Positions 3,839 through 62,996 of a DNA stretch of 64,000 bases are shown here, one piece after another. How positions within the stretch are numbered: position 1 is the first letter of the stretch; the number at the start of each line of letters is the position of its first letter. Under the pieces are notes generated by a model that saw nothing but the letters and a program-made list of their open reading frames with translations, ran no database searches and was not told the DNA's origin. The translations under genes were made by a program, and so were the position numbers. The DNA comes from Escherichia phage JM10, in the sequence record PP400777. One strand, written 5' to 3'.

Positions 3839-4363
3839 TCATTTTAGCAAAATAAAATCAACTTGTTCCGCCAATGAACGTCTGAACATTAATTGACAAC
3901 TTCCGAGGATGAAATCAGGTGCTTCATAGACCGCGATGTAGTATCCTTTAGCTTTCAAGAGTTCAACATCCACCTGGTCATCAAACCATGCATAAACCGC
4001 GTCAACACTTTCAAATCCAAAATAGAACCCTTTAGCCCAATCTTCACTCAATTCAAATGTGTGCTCAATTCTATAGTATCTTAAGATATTTTGTTCAAGG
4101 AGTTTGTCTTCATTTACTGTAGGACGATTAGGGACATTATAGTTGTCGCCGTGATGGTAGAAGTTACCTGAGAGTATTCCATGCTTATCAAGGAACTCCC
4201 ATGTTTCTTCAGAGTTGTCGGTGCCCGACCAACCGTATGGCGAACGAGGTTCTTTATTCCAAGAGGTTTCCCAAATTCTGACGGCTTTACCATCTTCGAT
4301 AGCAATTCCTGGTAATGATTCACGTTGAGTACAAAAACTACGTTCTACGCGGTAAACTAACAT
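3839..4363 (-). CDS. hypothetical protein, 174 aa
   Basis: ORF track; own early promoter and SD. Confidence 0.6.
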   Translation of the reverse strand: MLVYRVERSFCTQRESLPGIAIEDGKAVRIWETSWNKEPRSPYGWSGTDNSEETWEFLDKHGILSGNFYHHGDNYNVPNRPTVNEDKLLEQNILRYYRIEHTFELSEDWAKGFYFGFESVDAVYAWFDDQVDVELLKAKGYYIAVYEAPDFILGSCQLMFRRSLAEQVDFILLK

Positions 4364-4389
4364 ATTATTCTCCTCTGGTTGATATAGTT

Positions 4390-4418
4390 ATATTACCAAA
4401 ACCAGAGGAGAAGTAAAC
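4390..4418 (-). promoter_or_regulatory. sigma70-type early promoter (-35 GTTTAC, 17 nt, -10 TAATAT) with spacer/SD inverted repeat
   Basis: Minus strand GTTTACTTCTCCTCTGGTTTTGGTAATAT; spacer CTCCTCTGGTT complementary to AACCAGAGGAG at the SD. Confidence 0.6.
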
Positions 4419-9805: not shown

Positions 9806-10387
9806 CTAAAAATTCAACATTTTCAAATGAATGATTTTGTATAATCGAGATAAAGGGTCATATTCTAAGTCTTCAATTTCCACAATCTCAAATCTAGAGA
9901 TACCTGAGACCATGTACTCTTGTTCAGATTCAATCATATCTAGGACGTCAACACGCGTTTCTTCCATAACATGCTTAGGGTTCTTTCCGGCGAGTACAAT
10001 GTTAATCATGTTTTGGTAGTAATCAAAAATGAATGGAGCATTCCTGAGACTAAGAATAGTGTACGTCTGATATTCCCATCTCCCAGAGAATTGACGAGCT
10101 GTACTGAAATCAGTTGTGAACGATGTTACTCGTCCAGGAGACCAATGGCATCCAACAGAAAGAAGGGAAAGACGTTCTACTTCTTCTGGAGTTACACCAC
10201 GGTAGAGTTCTACTGGTACTGTAGAAGTCATATGCTTACGAACAAGATGGTCTAATCCATAGTGGAAATCCGGGTCTTCCTTAGAATCGGTGCAAGCCCA
10301 GAGAATGTTTTGTTCTTGGCGGGTGAATTTGCTATCAATCAGATTTGTTAGGTATTCACGTTCTTGAAGTTCAGATTGACATGTCAT
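9806..10387 (-). CDS. modB: ADP-ribosyltransferase, ModA/ModB family
   Basis: 193 aa; ...TSTVPVELYRGVTPE... Confidence 0.65.
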   Translation of the reverse strand: MTCQSELQEREYLTNLIDSKFTRQEQNILWACTDSKEDPDFHYGLDHLVRKHMTSTVPVELYRGVTPEEVERLSLLSVGCHWSPGRVTSFTTDFSTARQFSGRWEYQTYTILSLRNAPFIFDYYQNMINIVLAGKNPKHVMEETRVDVLDMIESEQEYMVSGISRFEIVEIEDLEYDPLSRLYKIIHLKMLNF

Positions 10388-10414
10388 GATAGACCTCCAT
10401 TTAAAGATAAGCCT

Positions 10415-10443
10415 ATCATAACACGAGAGGAGGGAATGTAAAC
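10415..10443 (-). promoter_or_regulatory. early promoter (-35 GTTTAC, 17 nt, -10 TATGAT)
   Basis: Minus strand GTTTACATTCCCTCCTCTCGTGTTATGAT upstream of modB. Confidence 0.6.
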
Positions 10444-11933: not shown

Positions 11934-11962
11934 AAAAAAAAAAAGGAATCCTTCGGGATTCC
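11934..11962 (-). terminator. Rho-independent terminator downstream of soc
   Basis: Minus strand GGAAUCC-CGAA-GGAUUCC followed by 11 U. Confidence 0.8.
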
Positions 11963-11971
11963 TTAAATTAT

Positions 11972-16960: not shown

Positions 16961-17274
16961 ATTTCCTCACAGAATGCCCATTCAGCATGATAAACTGTAG
17001 CACCTTTAGTATCATTCATTTGAACTACATCTACCGGAGAAATTACTCGATAGAGACGTGGTTCACCTCCATAAGAGCGTGCTGCTCGTCCTGCATAAAT
17101 CTTTGCTAAACCGATATCTTCAGTAAAGAATACACGATCCAAGTTTTTCTTACGTCCAGTTTCAGACAGAACTCCTGTTTCTTCAGGAGGACAAAGCATG
17201 TTTTCGATGTTAGCTGAACTACTTGAGCCGTGATAAAAAATCTTAAATTCTGCTTTACAATCGATGGTTTTCAT
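16957..17274 (-). CDS. hypothetical protein, 105 aa
   Basis: ORF track; early promoter and SD upstream. Confidence 0.55.
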   Translation of the reverse strand: MKTIDCKAEFKIFYHGSSSSANIENMLCPPEETGVLSETGRKKNLDRVFFTEDIGLAKIYAGRAARSYGGEPRLYRVISPVDVVQMNDTKGATVYHAEWAFCEEI

Positions 17275-17300
17275 TTTGTTCTCCAGTAGTTGATAGGTCT

Positions 17301-17329
17301 ATAATAACACAACTACTGGAGAAGTAAAC
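17301..17329 (-). promoter_or_regulatory. early promoter (-35 GTTTAC, 17 nt, TGnTATTAT) with spacer/SD inverted repeat
   Basis: Minus strand GTTTACTTCTCCAGTAGTTGTGTTATTAT; CTCCAGTAGTTG (17281-17292) complementary to CAACTACTGGAG (17311-17322). Confidence 0.65.
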
Positions 17330-17704
17330 TTAAAAACGTAATTTAGATATATCTGCGTTGATTTCGTTTTGGTTTGCGTCGTATGCAATTAAACGAACCG
17401 CTTTAGATGGGTCATTCAATGCATAGAAATGATGGAACATTGCTCGAACGATATCACCATTTACGAGTTCTACCTGGATAGGAGAACCTTTTTCGAGTTG
17501 GAAATGTTCATAAGCTTTGATGGTTCGTAGATAATCAAGTTTTTGATTTCCGGCTCCAACAATTTGTACGATACGTTTGCCAATGTTTTCCATACGAGAT
17601 ACAATAGTTTTAGGAGCAAGAATAACGTAGGTTGCCAGCGGAGAAACTACTTCAACAGTTGTGTTTTCGGTGATTGCAGTAAAAATTGCTTGAGACATAT
17701 TCAT
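17330..17704 (-). CDS. hypothetical protein, 124 aa
   Basis: ORF track. Confidence 0.55.
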   Translation of the reverse strand: MNMSQAIFTAITENTTVEVVSPLATYVILAPKTIVSRMENIGKRIVQIVGAGNQKLDYLRTIKAYEHFQLEKGSPIQVELVNGDIVRAMFHHFYALNDPSKAVRLIAYDANQNEINADISKLRF

Positions 17705-17763: not shown

Positions 17764-17767
17764 CCCG

Positions 17768-17792
17768 AAAGGAGACCGAAGTCTCCTTTTTA
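17768..17792. terminator. GC-rich hairpin after gene 41; U-tract is on the plus-strand side (orientation ambiguous)
   Basis: Plus aaaggagac-cgaa-gtctccttt then tttatt; on minus strand the loop is UUCG but 3' flank is UUUCGGGG. Confidence 0.4.
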
Positions 17793-39086: not shown

Positions 39087-39116
39087 TATACTCTGCTCTC
39101 AAGAGTTTGTAAATCG

Positions 39117-40005: not shown

Positions 40006-40304
40006 GGCTTAATTTCCTTCGCAATTGAACAGAAGATACCACGGTCACAAAGCATTTCACCAATTTCTGGATATTTGATTGAACGGTACCAAACATCCAG
40101 GCTTGAAACTCTGGTTATCTGTACTGCATTACCGTTGACAGAATAGTACTGGTCAACCTTAATTTCTTTATCTTCAATTGTCATTTTATTTTCCTCTATA
40201 GTAGATGGTTTAATCTTAACACATCTATTGAGGATGTAAACTGTTTTATGAAAATATTTTTGTTTTGAGAGGGGCACAAGGAGATAGTGAAGTGAAGATT
40301 CCAA
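40002..40304 (-). CDS. hypothetical protein, 100 aa
   Basis: ORF track. Confidence 0.45.
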   Translation of the reverse strand: MESSLHYLLVPLSKQKYFHKTVYILNRCVKIKPSTIEENKMTIEDKEIKVDQYYSVNGNAVQITRVSSLDVWYRSIKYPEIGEMLCDRGIFCSIAKEIKP

Positions 40305-40349
40305 TGGATTATATTAGAAATGAGATAAAGAAGACCAGGCGGCACCTGG

Positions 40350-40658
40350 TCAATCTTCTATGATATCAGAGTCATATCCTAATGAAATCAAGGACTTTTT
40401 AAACTCTGCAATATTCTTTTGTTTCTTATCATTTAAAAATATGACAGGATAACGAATATTAAGTGAAGTGAATCCTGCACGTTTAGCAAGAGATACGATT
40501 AAAGGACGGTCATATTCAATCTTACCATTATTAGTGAGGACTTTATAAAATGTATAAGGAGCATTGAGTTCCTTTAAAAGTTTTGTAACAGTATAACATC
40601 CTGGACAACGTCCAACTTCTTCAGGGATGCCATAAATTTCAATCTTGTTGTGTTCCAC
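40350..40658 (-). CDS. nrdH: glutaredoxin-like protein NrdH
   Basis: 102 aa; CPGC redox motif near N-terminus; synteny with nrdG/nrdD. Confidence 0.7.
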   Translation of the reverse strand: MEHNKIEIYGIPEEVGRCPGCYTVTKLLKELNAPYTFYKVLTNNGKIEYDRPLIVSLAKRAGFTSLNIRYPVIFLNDKKQKNIAEFKKSLISLGYDSDIIED

Positions 40659-53406: not shown

Positions 53407-53425
53407 TTTGTTCTCCATTTGTTTT

Positions 53426-53464
53426 GGTAGGACTACTATAACATAGTCCTACCAAGTTGTAAAC
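53426..53464 (-). promoter_or_regulatory. early promoter with perfect 10-bp palindrome flanking the -10
   Basis: Plus ggtaggacta-ctataaca-tagtcctacc; -35 GTTTAC at 53459-53464. Confidence 0.5.
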
Positions 53465-53697: not shown

Positions 53698-53926
53698 ACA
53701 TTTGCAATTCGGTGTGGGCGTCAGCCATCTTTTTCATAGCTCTGTTAATGTCGATGTCTCCATCTTCGCAACCATGAGCATTTTCCCAATCAGATACCGC
53801 ATTAGCGTACTCTTCAATCAAAAACATTAACTTAGAAATTTTTTCTTTACGTGACATAACGTTCTCCTCTAGTAAGTAAGGTTTACTATAACACAACCTG
53901 AGGAGAAGTAAACTGATAGATGCCAA
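53678..53926 (-). CDS. hypothetical protein, 82 aa
   Basis: ORF track. Confidence 0.45.
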   Translation of the reverse strand: MASISLLLLRLCYSKPYLLEENVMSRKEKISKLMFLIEEYANAVSDWENAHGCEDGDIDINRAMKKMADAHTELQMYVNEIM

Positions 53927-53958
53927 AAAGCCCCAACCTTTCGGAAGGGGCTAGTAAA

Positions 53959-56635: not shown

Positions 56636-57094
56636 CTAGATTTTAATCACTGCTTTAGAAGCTTTTCCTGGTAGTCGTTTATTGTTAATAATAGCCATTC
56701 TGCATTGAAGAGACTTCATTTTGAATGCTGGATTTTCGCGACAAACTGTAAGTCCTAACCAAAGATTTCCATCAGTTATTTCTAAACGGCCTGGGCGATA
56801 TTCGACACCTTCGACAAAATCTTCATCAACATCTGGACGTGCCGGCATTGATAAAAATTCTGCAACTTCTTTAACATGATTTTTTACTTTATGAAATAAT
56901 TCAAAAACGTAATTCTCATCTATTTCTCTCTGGATGGCACGATCTAAGAGATGTTGAGAATACTTGATATGAAAGCCTGGTAGTCCAAGAGACTTTGCAG
57001 CATCTTTTATACTGGCATTTATTTTGCGGAACTCCGTTTCAAAGATTCGACGGAGTTTATTACGGCGGATAAAAACGTCTGAATTGATAGTCAT
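56636..57094 (-). CDS. regB: endoribonuclease RegB
   Basis: 152 aa; MTINSDVFIRRNKLRR...YSQHLLDRAIQREIDE...LQCRMAIINNKRLPGKASKAVIK matches T4 RegB from memory. Confidence 0.9.
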   Translation of the reverse strand: MTINSDVFIRRNKLRRIFETEFRKINASIKDAAKSLGLPGFHIKYSQHLLDRAIQREIDENYVFELFHKVKNHVKEVAEFLSMPARPDVDEDFVEGVEYRPGRLEITDGNLWLGLTVCRENPAFKMKSLQCRMAIINNKRLPGKASKAVIKI

Positions 57095-57122
57095 TTTGAT
57101 TTCTCCTCTAGTTGACAGGTCT

Positions 57123-57151
57123 ATAGTAACACAACTAGAGGAGAAGTAAAC
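57123..57151 (-). promoter_or_regulatory. early promoter upstream of regB with perfect 12-bp spacer/SD inverted repeat
   Basis: Minus strand GTTTACTTCTCCTCTAGTTGTGTTACTAT; CTCCTCTAGTTG (57103-57114, SD) complementary to CAACTAGAGGAG (57132-57143). Confidence 0.65.
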
Positions 57152-59064: not shown

Positions 59065-59177
59065 TTAGTTTCTCTTTTAGGTTGGGCCATTCCGTGGCGC
59101 ATGAATTGTCCATTTCTGTATTTACCCCTCCAAGTAATTATGAATATACTATCACAATTCTAGGAGAAAGTAAACTG

Positions 59178-59480
59178 TTATTTACCTTTAATTACTTTAG
59201 CTGCTTCGATAGCCGCTTGCTGAAGGTCATCCATAGACATACCGAATTTAGAAGCAAAGTTATCAATTTTCTTTTCGACAGCATTCAAAGGCTTTGCCTG
59301 TTTACCTTCATTAGCGCCAGGAAGAGCGAGAATACGCTCTTTGTCAATATAAAGGCTTACAAGTTTCTTACGGTCTTTATCGGACAAATCATGAAATGAA
59401 TGGGCCTTTTTATTTATAGCGGCTTCTAATTTACCTGCACTCACTCGCGCTTCAGTAATAAATTCTTGATAGGTTTTCAT
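59178..59480 (-). CDS. internal protein (IPII-like) with capsid-targeting N-terminus
   Basis: 100 aa; starts MKTYQEFITEA. Confidence 0.7.
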   Translation of the reverse strand: MKTYQEFITEARVSAGKLEAAINKKAHSFHDLSDKDRKKLVSLYIDKERILALPGANEGKQAKPLNAVEKKIDNFASKFGMSMDDLQQAAIEAAKVIKGK

Positions 59481-59804: not shown

Positions 59805-59971
59805 TTTTCCTTAGTAAATTGATTTACCAAAGTATTTGTACCAAGTCGGGCGTTGAGCAATTTTTTATCTAAGCGTGCTTGACTTATCGCAATGGACGCT
59901 TCGGACGGGTCATAATTTCCTCCAAGTAGTTGATGAATGTATAGTATCAAAACCCTTGGAGGAAGTAAACA

Positions 59972-60253: not shown

Positions 60254-60738
60254 ATATACGCTTTCCAAGTTCCTGTTTTAAATGTTGAGATTACGCGTTT
60301 CGCGCGATTAGGTGTCTGACGATACCATTTAGATTGGGCTAGATTTACTGCCGCCTCGTCCCAACGTTTCTGTTGAAGCATACGAAGAGAATTAGTAAAA
60401 CCGGCGACGCCTGCTACACCCATTTGGAAGACCATATTGACCAATGCACATCGACGAACCGCATCTAAAGAATCATATACCGGTTTAAGTTTAGCATTAC
60501 CCAAGATTCCGCGAACGGCTTTATCAACGTCTTCATTAAATAGCTTTTCAGCCTCATCAAGGGTAATTGTACCGTTGCATTTACGACCGATAATTCTGTC
60601 AAGTTCAGCTTTAGCTACGGCTAAAGACGGGTTCTTTGTTACTAAATGGCCTATGCCAATCGTCCAAAAGCCTTCAGTGTCTTTATATAAAGTCAGTCTA
60701 AGACCTTCGTCATTACGAAGCATTTCAAATATATTCAT
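60250..60738 (-). CDS. e: lysozyme (endolysin), start at MNIFEML
   Basis: [31 protein letters not shown]...[29 protein letters not shown] matches T4 lysozyme from memory. Confidence 0.95.
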
Positions 60739-60740
60739 AA

Positions 60741-60764
60741 TACCTCCCACGTTTATAGGAGGTA
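60741..60764 (-). promoter_or_regulatory. SD-sequestering hairpin with embedded late-promoter-like TATAAACG upstream of e
   Basis: Minus strand UACCUCC-UAUAAACGU-GGGAGGUA; 3' arm is the SD GGGAGG. Confidence 0.6.
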
Positions 60765-60772
60765 TTTATTAC

Positions 60773-61231
60773 TTATAGGAGGGTAGTGAGCACCTTATAT
60801 AATGATTTGCCCATTACATATTCCCATTGAGAAGGTTTAATTAAAGCGAATGCATCAAATTCAGGAATCTGTCGTCCGTCTGGGAATGTATGATAGGAAT
60901 TACAAACACTGTTTCTGAATTGCTCGTGCTCTACAGGGATGGTATATTGGAACAGATGAATATTCTTATTGTCTGAGTAATGATGTTCACCTAGGTCTTT
61001 CAGGAAGGCAGGGTCATATTGTGTAAACCCAGTTTCTTCTTCGCATTCACGAATAGCGGCTTCAATAGGAGATTCGCCAGGTTCGACACGGCCTTTAGGA
61101 ATATCCCACCGATGGGCTAATGCACCTTTAGGACGAGAACCAGTTACACGCCCCATGAATAATTCTTTATCTTTGGTAAGGAAAATAATACCGGCTGATA
61201 GTTCTTTCACTTTATTTTTCTTACTCATCAT
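60773..61231 (-). CDS. nudE: Nudix hydrolase
   Basis: 152 aa; Nudix box GRVEPGESPIEAAIRECEEETGF. Confidence 0.85.
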   Translation of the reverse strand: MMSKKNKVKELSAGIIFLTKDKELFMGRVTGSRPKGALAHRWDIPKGRVEPGESPIEAAIRECEEETGFTQYDPAFLKDLGEHHYSDNKNIHLFQYTIPVEHEQFRNSVCNSYHTFPDGRQIPEFDAFALIKPSQWEYVMGKSLYKVLTTLL

Positions 61232-62938: not shown

Positions 62939-62959
62939 AATATTCTCCTCATGTTTTAA

Positions 62960-62996
62960 TAGGACTACTATAACATAGTCCTATAATTGTGTAAAC
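62960..62996 (-). promoter_or_regulatory. early promoter with TAGGACTA/TAGTCCTA palindrome flanking the -10
   Basis: Plus taggacta-ctataaca-tagtccta; -35 GTTTAC at 62991-62996. Confidence 0.5.

Follow-up and report, generated by a model that had tools for sequence, protein, structure and literature searches.

Early promoters of Escherichia phage JM10 complementary to the ribosome-binding site of their own gene: candidate masks of read-through transcripts

In a 64,000-nucleotide stretch of the genome of Escherichia phage JM10 (sequence record PP400777; hereafter the window), a subset of putative immediate-early genes is preceded by a promoter that carries the reverse complement of the gene's own Shine-Dalgarno (SD) region, in the spacer between the −35 and −10 boxes or, in some lineages, in the −10 box and discriminator. 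This feature is real, selected and gene-specific. We think it rather probable that the promoter-embedded sequence masks the translation initiation region (TIR) and thereby restricts translation to transcripts started at the gene's own early promoter; this masking interpretation is plausible, with strong comparative evidence behind it. With coliphage RB69 (Mosigvirus, a T4-type myovirus) the window shares about 98% identity, and all the genes of the window lie on the minus strand.

On the coding strand, a masked unit reads GTTTAC (−35), directly followed by the 5′ arm of an inverted repeat, the −10 box in the loop and a 3′ arm that terminates in GGAGAA; the ATG comes 4-6 nt later (Table 1). The promoters are of the early, sigma-70 type (GTTTAC-N17/18-TAnnnT), and the whole composite of AT-rich sequence, sigma-70-like promoter, SD and ATG spans 55-60 nt between the stop codon upstream and the ATG. 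All eight promoters discussed here are covered by an independent promoter prediction in RB69 (Nolan et al. 2006, supplement). An unbiased scan of the window for perfect inverted repeats returned stems of 14, 14 and 13 bp, a 10-bp stem at 59964/59917 and the hairpin of the lysozyme gene e, our positive control. A first-pass annotation of this DNA had quoted four pairs of complementary sequences; all four are found at the plus-strand coordinates it gave, the genes themselves being on the minus strand. It had put the complementarity at 11-12 nt: the pairing is indeed there, and the three perfect stems are longer than that. Its weaker pair at 53861-53900 corresponds to 8 perfect bp with an imperfect extension, and the denV remnant was absent from its list. 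In the four strong units the 5′ arm ends upstream of the −10 box; since it lies between −35 and −10, it is excluded from locally initiated RNA, and the SD falls within the 3′ arm, exactly the geometry that the annotation had inferred.

Table 1. Units of the window whose promoter region pairs with the downstream SD region, and the gene e hairpin. RB69 promoters are from Nolan et al. (2006). The last column gives the predicted SD opening energy (kcal/mol) in read-through and in local RNA.
Unit	Span (strand)	−35	−10	ATG	Stem	5′ arm	3′ arm	Context	RB69 promoter	Opening, read-through / local
ORF040c	17272..17329 (−)	GTTTAC 17329-17324	TATTAT 17306-17301	17274-17272	14 bp, loop 17 nt	TTCTCCAGTAGTTG 17323-17310	CAACTACTGGAGAA 17292-17279, SD GGAG inside	ORF041c stop TAA 17332-17330 abuts −35; RB69ORF040c, then dmd and 61.4	Pe:20537	13.4 / 2.0
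regB	57092..57151 (−)	57151-57146	TACTAT 57128-57123	57094-57092	14 bp, loop 17 nt	TTCTCCTCTAGTTG 57145-57132	CAACTAGAGGAGAA 57114-57101	Upstream stop TAA 57158-57156, 4 nt from −35	Pe:61376	12.7 / 2.0
motB.2	4361..4418 (−)	4418-4413	TAATAT 4395-4390	4363-4361	13 bp, loop 19 nt	TTCTCCTCTGGTT 4412-4400	AACCAGAGGAGAA 4380-4368	Upstream stop TAA 4425-4423, 4 nt from −35	Pe:7443	12.8 / 3.9
denV remnant	59911..59970 (−)	59970-59965		59913-59911	10 bp	TTCCTCCAAG 59964-59955	CTTGGAGGAA 59926-59917		Pe:64934	11.2 / 2.4
mobD.2a (weaker)	53855..53913 (−)	53913-53908		53857-53855	8 bp and imperfect extension	TTCTCCTC 53907-53900	GAGGAGAA 53869-53862	Terminator-like hairpin ahead, about 53958-53925		8.0 / 3.2
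modB (alternative architecture)	10385..10443 (−)					−10/discriminator (TATGAT+AGGCT...)	SD-AUG region (GGAGGTCTATCATG)			7.9 / 2.7
55.6-like ORF (moderate)	40182..40241 (−)				6+4 bp, internal loop	Spacer CCTCAATAGATG	CATCTA..GAGG			7.5 / 0.9
Gene e hairpin (positive control)	60736..60775 (−)					AATACCTCC (arms 60766-60739)	GGAGGTATT	Directly before ATG		

Perfect stems of at least 13 bp with loops of 10-40 nt occurred three times in the window, as compared with 0.045 expected from 200 dinucleotide shuffles. Stems of 9 bp were at background (14 observed, 10 expected), and therefore only the long stems are individually significant. Twenty-two strong early-type units, defined by a perfect GTTTAC, a −10 box, an SD and an ATG, were found in the window. 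When spacers and leaders were swapped among these 22 promoters, the own leader ranked first of 22 as a partner for each of the four strongest spacers, and the mean energy of the own duplexes was −8.9 kcal/mol, against −6.6 ± 0.5 kcal/mol for the permutations (p about 5e-5). We also computed the energy needed to open the SD core in the read-through RNA and in an RNA started 7 nt after the −10 box, a measure that replaced the mean unpaired probability over 17 nt, which was too coarse. Seven of the 22 units showed a clear difference (Table 1), whereas in the remaining 15 the two values were essentially equal. Masking thus belongs to about a third of the early promoters of the window and is gene-specific; a survey of 23 strong units of T4 (0-77 kb) gave about 4-6, and the "general design feature" proposed by the annotation is an overstatement. 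Folding the read-through and promoter-initiated forms, as it had also suggested, gave the expected contrast. According to the folding tool, the minimum free energy (MFE) of the read-through RNA is −23 to −26 kcal/mol (z −3.0 to −4.9), whereas for the promoter-initiated leaders it predicts an open form, with less structure than in shuffled versions of the same sequence (z +0.6 to +1.7). For ORF040c, for example, the predicted MFE is −25 kcal/mol (z −4.9) in the read-through form and −1.0 kcal/mol (z +1.1) in the local one.

Comparison of orthologues argues for selection on the pairing itself. Across regB loci gathered from contigs of viral and metagenome origin, the stem persists although both arms of its variable core differ between lineages. 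This core is CTCTAGTTG/CAACTAGAG in RB69-type phages and CTCTTGACTG/CAGTTAAGAG, with two G.U pairs on the sense strand, in T4-type phages; elsewhere it is CTCTTTATG/CATAAAGAG, CTGTAAGT/ACTTACAG, CTGTAG/CTACAG or ATCCTCTCTG/CAGAGAGGAT. The architecture shifts as well, the −10 region pairing with SD-AUG in one lineage and the −35 region with the AUG region in another. Of 11 lineage variants, 10 had the own leader as the best partner of the regB promoter arm. The observed mean was not reached by any of 14,833 derangements among eight representative lineages. In an ungapped alignment anchored on the arms, an anchoring partly fitted to the structure, the covariation score was 0.628, as compared with 0.267 after shuffling (0 of 500 shuffles reaching it) and 0.14-0.26 for slid registers, and 15 of 15 pairs were changed on both sides. 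A MAFFT alignment of the regB leaders put the stems out of register and was dropped in favour of the alignment-free test of own against swapped duplexes; pairs were also counted in units that had been pooled by their pairing score, and this count was left unused, because selecting on pairing makes the percentage of paired positions circular. For motB.2, the orthologue search returned only three RB69-like loci.

At denV, the predicted opening energy of the read-through RNA exceeds that of the local RNA by at least 4 kcal/mol in all 26 distinct T4-like upstream regions that have an early-type promoter, a result that holds for a start site placed 6, 7 or 8 nt after the −10 box. These denV masks use at least two architectures (spacer with SD, and −10/discriminator with SD-AUG) and at least eight different arm sequences. 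As far as sequences can tell, what is conserved at denV is thus the masking of the TIR by a promoter-embedded sequence and not a particular sequence, and covariation in the regB and denV orthologues shows that the pairing is under selection. The second architecture, in which the −10 hexamer and discriminator pair with the SD-AUG region (for example ATGTCCTCCTA/TAGGAGGACAT), is that of modB in the window and of denV in many lineages (loci L214, L221, L222, L229, L231-L233, L235-L237 and L242). In T4 itself, the predicted opening energies in read-through and local RNA (kcal/mol) are 10.4/2.5 for denV, 10.7/2.9 for regB, 13.4/2.9 for nrdC.8, 12.6/1.7 for modB, 10.2/5.4 for motB.2 and 7.2/2.2 for e.8; motB.2 shows the same effect as in JM10 with different arms. 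A scan of viral contigs for the pattern GTTTACTTCTCC-N11-TANNNT gave a bimodal distribution, with chance matches pairing over at most 5 bp. In the T4-like matches, TTCTCC pairs with GGAGAA located 4-6 nt before the ATG, and several new variable cores were found.

The regulatory scenario that we propose is the following. A transcript reading through from upstream would hold both arms and would fold into a hairpin of 10-15 bp burying the GGAG, so that binding of the 30S subunit would be blocked and the cistron would remain silent. The local transcript would start 2-5 nt before the 3′ arm, without the 5′ arm, and its unusually open leader would be translated. The occurrence of read-through transcripts at these sites, the formation of the hairpin in vivo and the block of initiation are what we infer from the structures described above. 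As a consequence, the synthesis of RegB, DenV, MotB.2, ModB and ORF040c/Dmd would be tied to the short period of early-promoter firing, and the masked genes would be shielded from delayed-early or middle read-through where the junction leaves no room for a terminator. Masking is a good fit for regB, given how tightly RegB production is controlled: the T4 regB promoter has been described experimentally as a typical early promoter, and control involves both early promoter shut-off and cleavage by RegB of its own SD (T4 review). A structure problem has also been reported with the modB RNA (Durand 2006, PMC1702504).

A mechanism of this kind is well known, and experimentally established, in other settings. 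McPheeters and coworkers reportedly worked in 1986 on T4 hairpins that mask read-through transcripts, and PMC13181058 cites Davis, Simons and Kleckner (1985) for fold-back inhibition in IS10/Tn10. In IS10, the promoter-proximal transcript of a sigma-70 promoter is translatable, whereas transcripts coming from outside carry an upstream complement that sequesters the ribosome-binding site. However, IS10 is one transposase locus guarding against external promoters, whereas the JM10 masks are recurrent and gene-specific and belong to a phage early programme. In T4, a helix holds the SD and/or AUG of e, soc, 49 and I-TevI, and the late promoter of the gene itself is overlapped by the 5′ strand of this helix; the long transcripts are silent and the promoter-proximal ones are translated, e being repressed about 100-fold (PMC3014915). 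The JM10 units share with this class an SD placed in a stable helix of the longer transcript (predicted; 10-14 bp including the GGAG) and a 5′ strand located upstream of the proximal start (at predicted promoters). They differ in their promoters, which are of the sigma-70 early type and not late (gp55, TATAAATA), and in their 5′ arm, which is the −35/−10 spacer or the −10/discriminator. They would also differ in outcome, since the masks of the e class delay expression until late, whereas the early ones would confine it to the immediate-early burst. The annotation had considered the logic documented for a few T4 genes, which is correct for these late-promoter cases and does not extend to early promoters; regB, denV, motB.2 and modB are not listed among the T4 masking hairpins in that paper (PMC3014915). 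The early-promoter version, or any of these genes as masked, was not found in T4 reviews, the PeSL papers discussed below, the RB69 genome paper, the RegB target paper or full-text searches, that is in the searchable literature, outside of which key older sources lie. Stem-loops before some open reading frames (ORFs) of the T4 region, including denV, are said to be mentioned by Valerie et al. in 1986 (NAR 14:8637), and hairpins in the dda-56 region by Mosig et al. in 1998 (Gene 223:143), so a partial prior description is possible.

The genomic context of the masks speaks for a function linked to read-through and also sets limits to it. Long stems are inversely associated with upstream terminators, as a read-through-related RNA function would predict: the weaker units have gaps of 29-108 nt that hold terminator-like hairpins, and in ORF040c orthologues with an upstream terminator the pairing is down to 5-6 bp. 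Among 134 distinct units, from all the T4-like loci gathered, we called a junction tight when at most 6 nt separate the stop codon from the −35 box. Stems of at least 10 bp were present at 23 of the 78 tight junctions and at 2 of the 56 loose ones (Fisher p 9e-5), in a count that takes related phages as separate units, not phylogenetically independent. This dependence is one of several points that weigh against the scenario. No mask is present at 55 of the 78 equally tight junctions, so the selective logic is gene-specific. The start sites of the JM10 units are predicted. Rho-dependent termination or RNA processing could remove the read-through RNA, and the mask would then be irrelevant. Some opening of the stem might also come from ribosomes that terminate 6-10 nt upstream of it. 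A suggestion by Durand (2006) is that RegB can attack RNA that is still being made, ahead of its folding (PMC1702504), and ribosomes might similarly reach the nascent RNA in time. Finally, G.U and A.C combinations inside the stems number 4 and 2 under symmetric scoring, and this count therefore does not discriminate between selection at the RNA and at the DNA level.

Several other functions must be weighed against masking of read-through RNA. The hairpin might act as a gate for translational coupling, shutting the SD until a ribosome that finishes the abutting upstream ORF melts the stem. Indeed, in the four strong units and modB the upstream stop codon overlaps the −35 box or lies 0-4 nt from it, so that in all the strong units 6-10 nt separate it from the 5′ arm, and long stems are almost confined to tight junctions. 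We nevertheless regard coupling as unlikely. The nudE stop codon is located 6 nt before the 5′ arm of the gene e hairpin (7 nt in T4), a spacing equal to that of the early-promoter units, and the e cistron is still repressed about 100-fold in T4 read-through RNA; efficient opening by terminating ribosomes is therefore unlikely. Moreover, a ribosome sitting on a stop codon extends, with its mRNA channel and helicase, to about 5-10 nt beyond that codon, which on such general grounds would open 0-3 of the 14 bp and leave the GGAG paired. The units also resemble the PeSL cassettes of RB49/phi1, PST/T4 and nt-1/KVP40 (Arbiol 2010, PMC2839356; Comeau 2014, PMC4122927), in which the stem-loop lies between −35 and −10 or over the −10 box and which occur in many copies in early hyperplastic regions. 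There the stem-loop is read as a terminator or attenuator of upstream transcription and as a recombination substrate, and SD pairing in JM10 would on this account be incidental. The JM10 units do have the same composite anatomy in a short intergenic space (AT-rich region, early sigma-70-like promoter, stem-loop, SD and ATG), those at 17329 and 57151 share about 90% identity across 60 nt, and rearrangements (the denV deletion and a replaced segment) adjoin the unit at 59970. However, the sequences that follow the 3′ arms (CAAAAUG, AUCAAAAUG, UAAUAUG and AUUAUG) contain no U-tract, so the stems are not canonical intrinsic terminators; with no U-run directly 3′, the intrinsic (Rho-independent) reading was rejected, and a scan for intrinsic terminators did not call the stems of the masked units. 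True terminator hairpins are found at other promoters, inversely associated with long stems. PeSL stems consist of a G-run and a C-run, without reported SD involvement, in RB49 (PMC4122927), or lie just upstream of the promoter in PST/T4, whereas in JM10 the SD is always within the 3′ arm and the arms co-vary; the TIR stays masked even in lineages with a changed architecture, as would not be expected from a role in termination or recombination. SD pairing is not described for PeSLs in those papers, which did not analyse RB69-type phages (PMC2839356; PMC4122927). A purely PeSL-like role thus appears quite unlikely.

The target might instead be decay, the pairing shielding the GGAG from RegB or RNase E/G, or stabilising the upstream message at its 3′ end. 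RegB cuts the GGAG of early SDs, is easily inhibited by secondary structure and has regB, motB.2 and modB among its T4 targets (PMC1702504). Its site with S1 is a GGAG followed by an A-rich heptamer (Durand 2006, PMC1702504), and the JM10 3′ arms fit this description, with GGAGAA followed by A-rich sequence (GGAGAACAAAA, GGAGAAAUCAA and GGAGAAUAAUA); the GGAG of these sites is predicted to be single-stranded only in the local transcript. However, the RegB/S1 site is a single-stranded nuclease target and not a hairpin, and denV, the most consistently conserved mask (26 of 26 lineages), has a RegB-resistant SD in T4. A paired SD is untranslatable whether cut or uncut, so that protection would be a role additional to translational masking and not an alternative to it; as the sole function we hold it to be very unlikely. 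We consider highly improbable a role at the DNA level (cruciform or hairpin in supercoiled or single-stranded DNA, protein-binding palindrome, spacer tuning) or shared cassette ancestry without selected pairing. It is true that perfect palindromes read alike on both strands, that the G.U and A.C count given above is uninformative here, and that other palindromes, centred on the −10 box, exist without contacting the SD. Nevertheless, whatever the architecture, the SD or TIR invariably makes up one arm and the second arm lies upstream of the start site, which a function in DNA would not call for; the association with abutting upstream ORFs points to read-through RNA, and the two sense-strand G.U pairs of the T4 regB stem would be A.C mismatches on the opposite strand. 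Compensatory changes, seen in numerous lineages, rule out plain ancestry.

Should the masks function as proposed, the synthesis of potentially harmful enzymes (the RegB RNase, the ModB ADP-ribosyltransferase and the DenV nicking glycosylase) would be limited to the initial two or three minutes despite the location of their genes inside longer transcription units, and a cis-acting layer would be added to the long-studied but incompletely understood early shut-off of T4. For the reading of genomes, this would mean that operon-style read-through cannot be presumed to express every cistron; for engineering, that in T4 or RB69 the gene after an early promoter would be unmasked or silenced once this promoter is shifted or deleted. 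PeSL-like stem-loops would also gain a second, testable function. More tentatively, and with real doubt on our part, regB, denV, modB, motB.2, nrdC.8 and the RB69-type ORF040c-dmd operon may form a conserved set of "own-promoter-only" immediate-early genes of T4-type phages, whose translation would be fixed to their own early promoter by the anti-TIR sequence inside it. In these genes the mask would have been repeatedly re-invented, in at least two architectures, in place of terminators at tight junctions, and would make up an unrecognised layer of the early-to-middle switch beside RegB and promoter shut-off.

The early region makes up the window, running from topoisomerase via motB, dda, modA/B, soc, gene 41, uvsX, gene 43, nrdC, tk, regB and e, and most masked units are in conserved synteny with RB69. 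The exception is the unit at 59970, which is adjoined by an internal deletion in denV and by a replaced segment. In JM10 denV is a pseudogene, in which the promoter/hairpin/ATG unit is followed by MTRPKRPLR and a stop (window 59905-59917, minus strand). Only 9 codons follow the ATG because of the internal deletion; about 298 bp are absent, with RB69 64558-64854 as the reference. Positions 59104-59450 have no match to RB69 63316-64089 (the ORF123c/124c region) and mark a segment of the hyperplastic region, between vs.8 and denV, that has been replaced. A scan of the whole window against Rfam gave no family match at the gathering score.

Other hairpins accompany early promoters of the window. 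Terminator-like hairpins with U-runs are found at about 53925-53958, 11942-11965, 17765-17790 and 40332-40352 (minus strand); they precede the promoters P53913, P11924, P17763 and P40241, where SD masking is weak or absent. A second class consists of palindromes centred on the −10 box (for example TTGGTAGGACT atgtTATAGT AGTCCTACCAA, 11 bp), located at 53424-53455, at 62959-62984 and in the units at 39114, 49077 and 15811 (minus strand). They leave the SD untouched and its accessibility unchanged, and resemble the RB49 PeSL stems "overlapping the −10". The early leaders also share an extended consensus, TAttAT-AGACCTATCAACTAC-GGAGAA-CAAAATG (for example at 17301-17272, 49048-49019 and 50802-50773), which fits the RegB/S1 site (GGAG and A-rich heptamer). 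Outside the window, a strong terminator hairpin immediately precedes the denV homologues of four jumbo-phage contigs of 345-378 kb (L234, L238, L239 and L244), where it takes the place of a GTTTAC-type promoter with a masking arm. Lastly, a 359-kb contig that is probably not from a T4-type phage (L130; IMGVR_UViG_3300015606_001334) carries a stem of like design, in which promoter spacer and leader pair over 15 bp (TCTTCTCGTTTTGAA/TTCAAAGCGAGAAGA).

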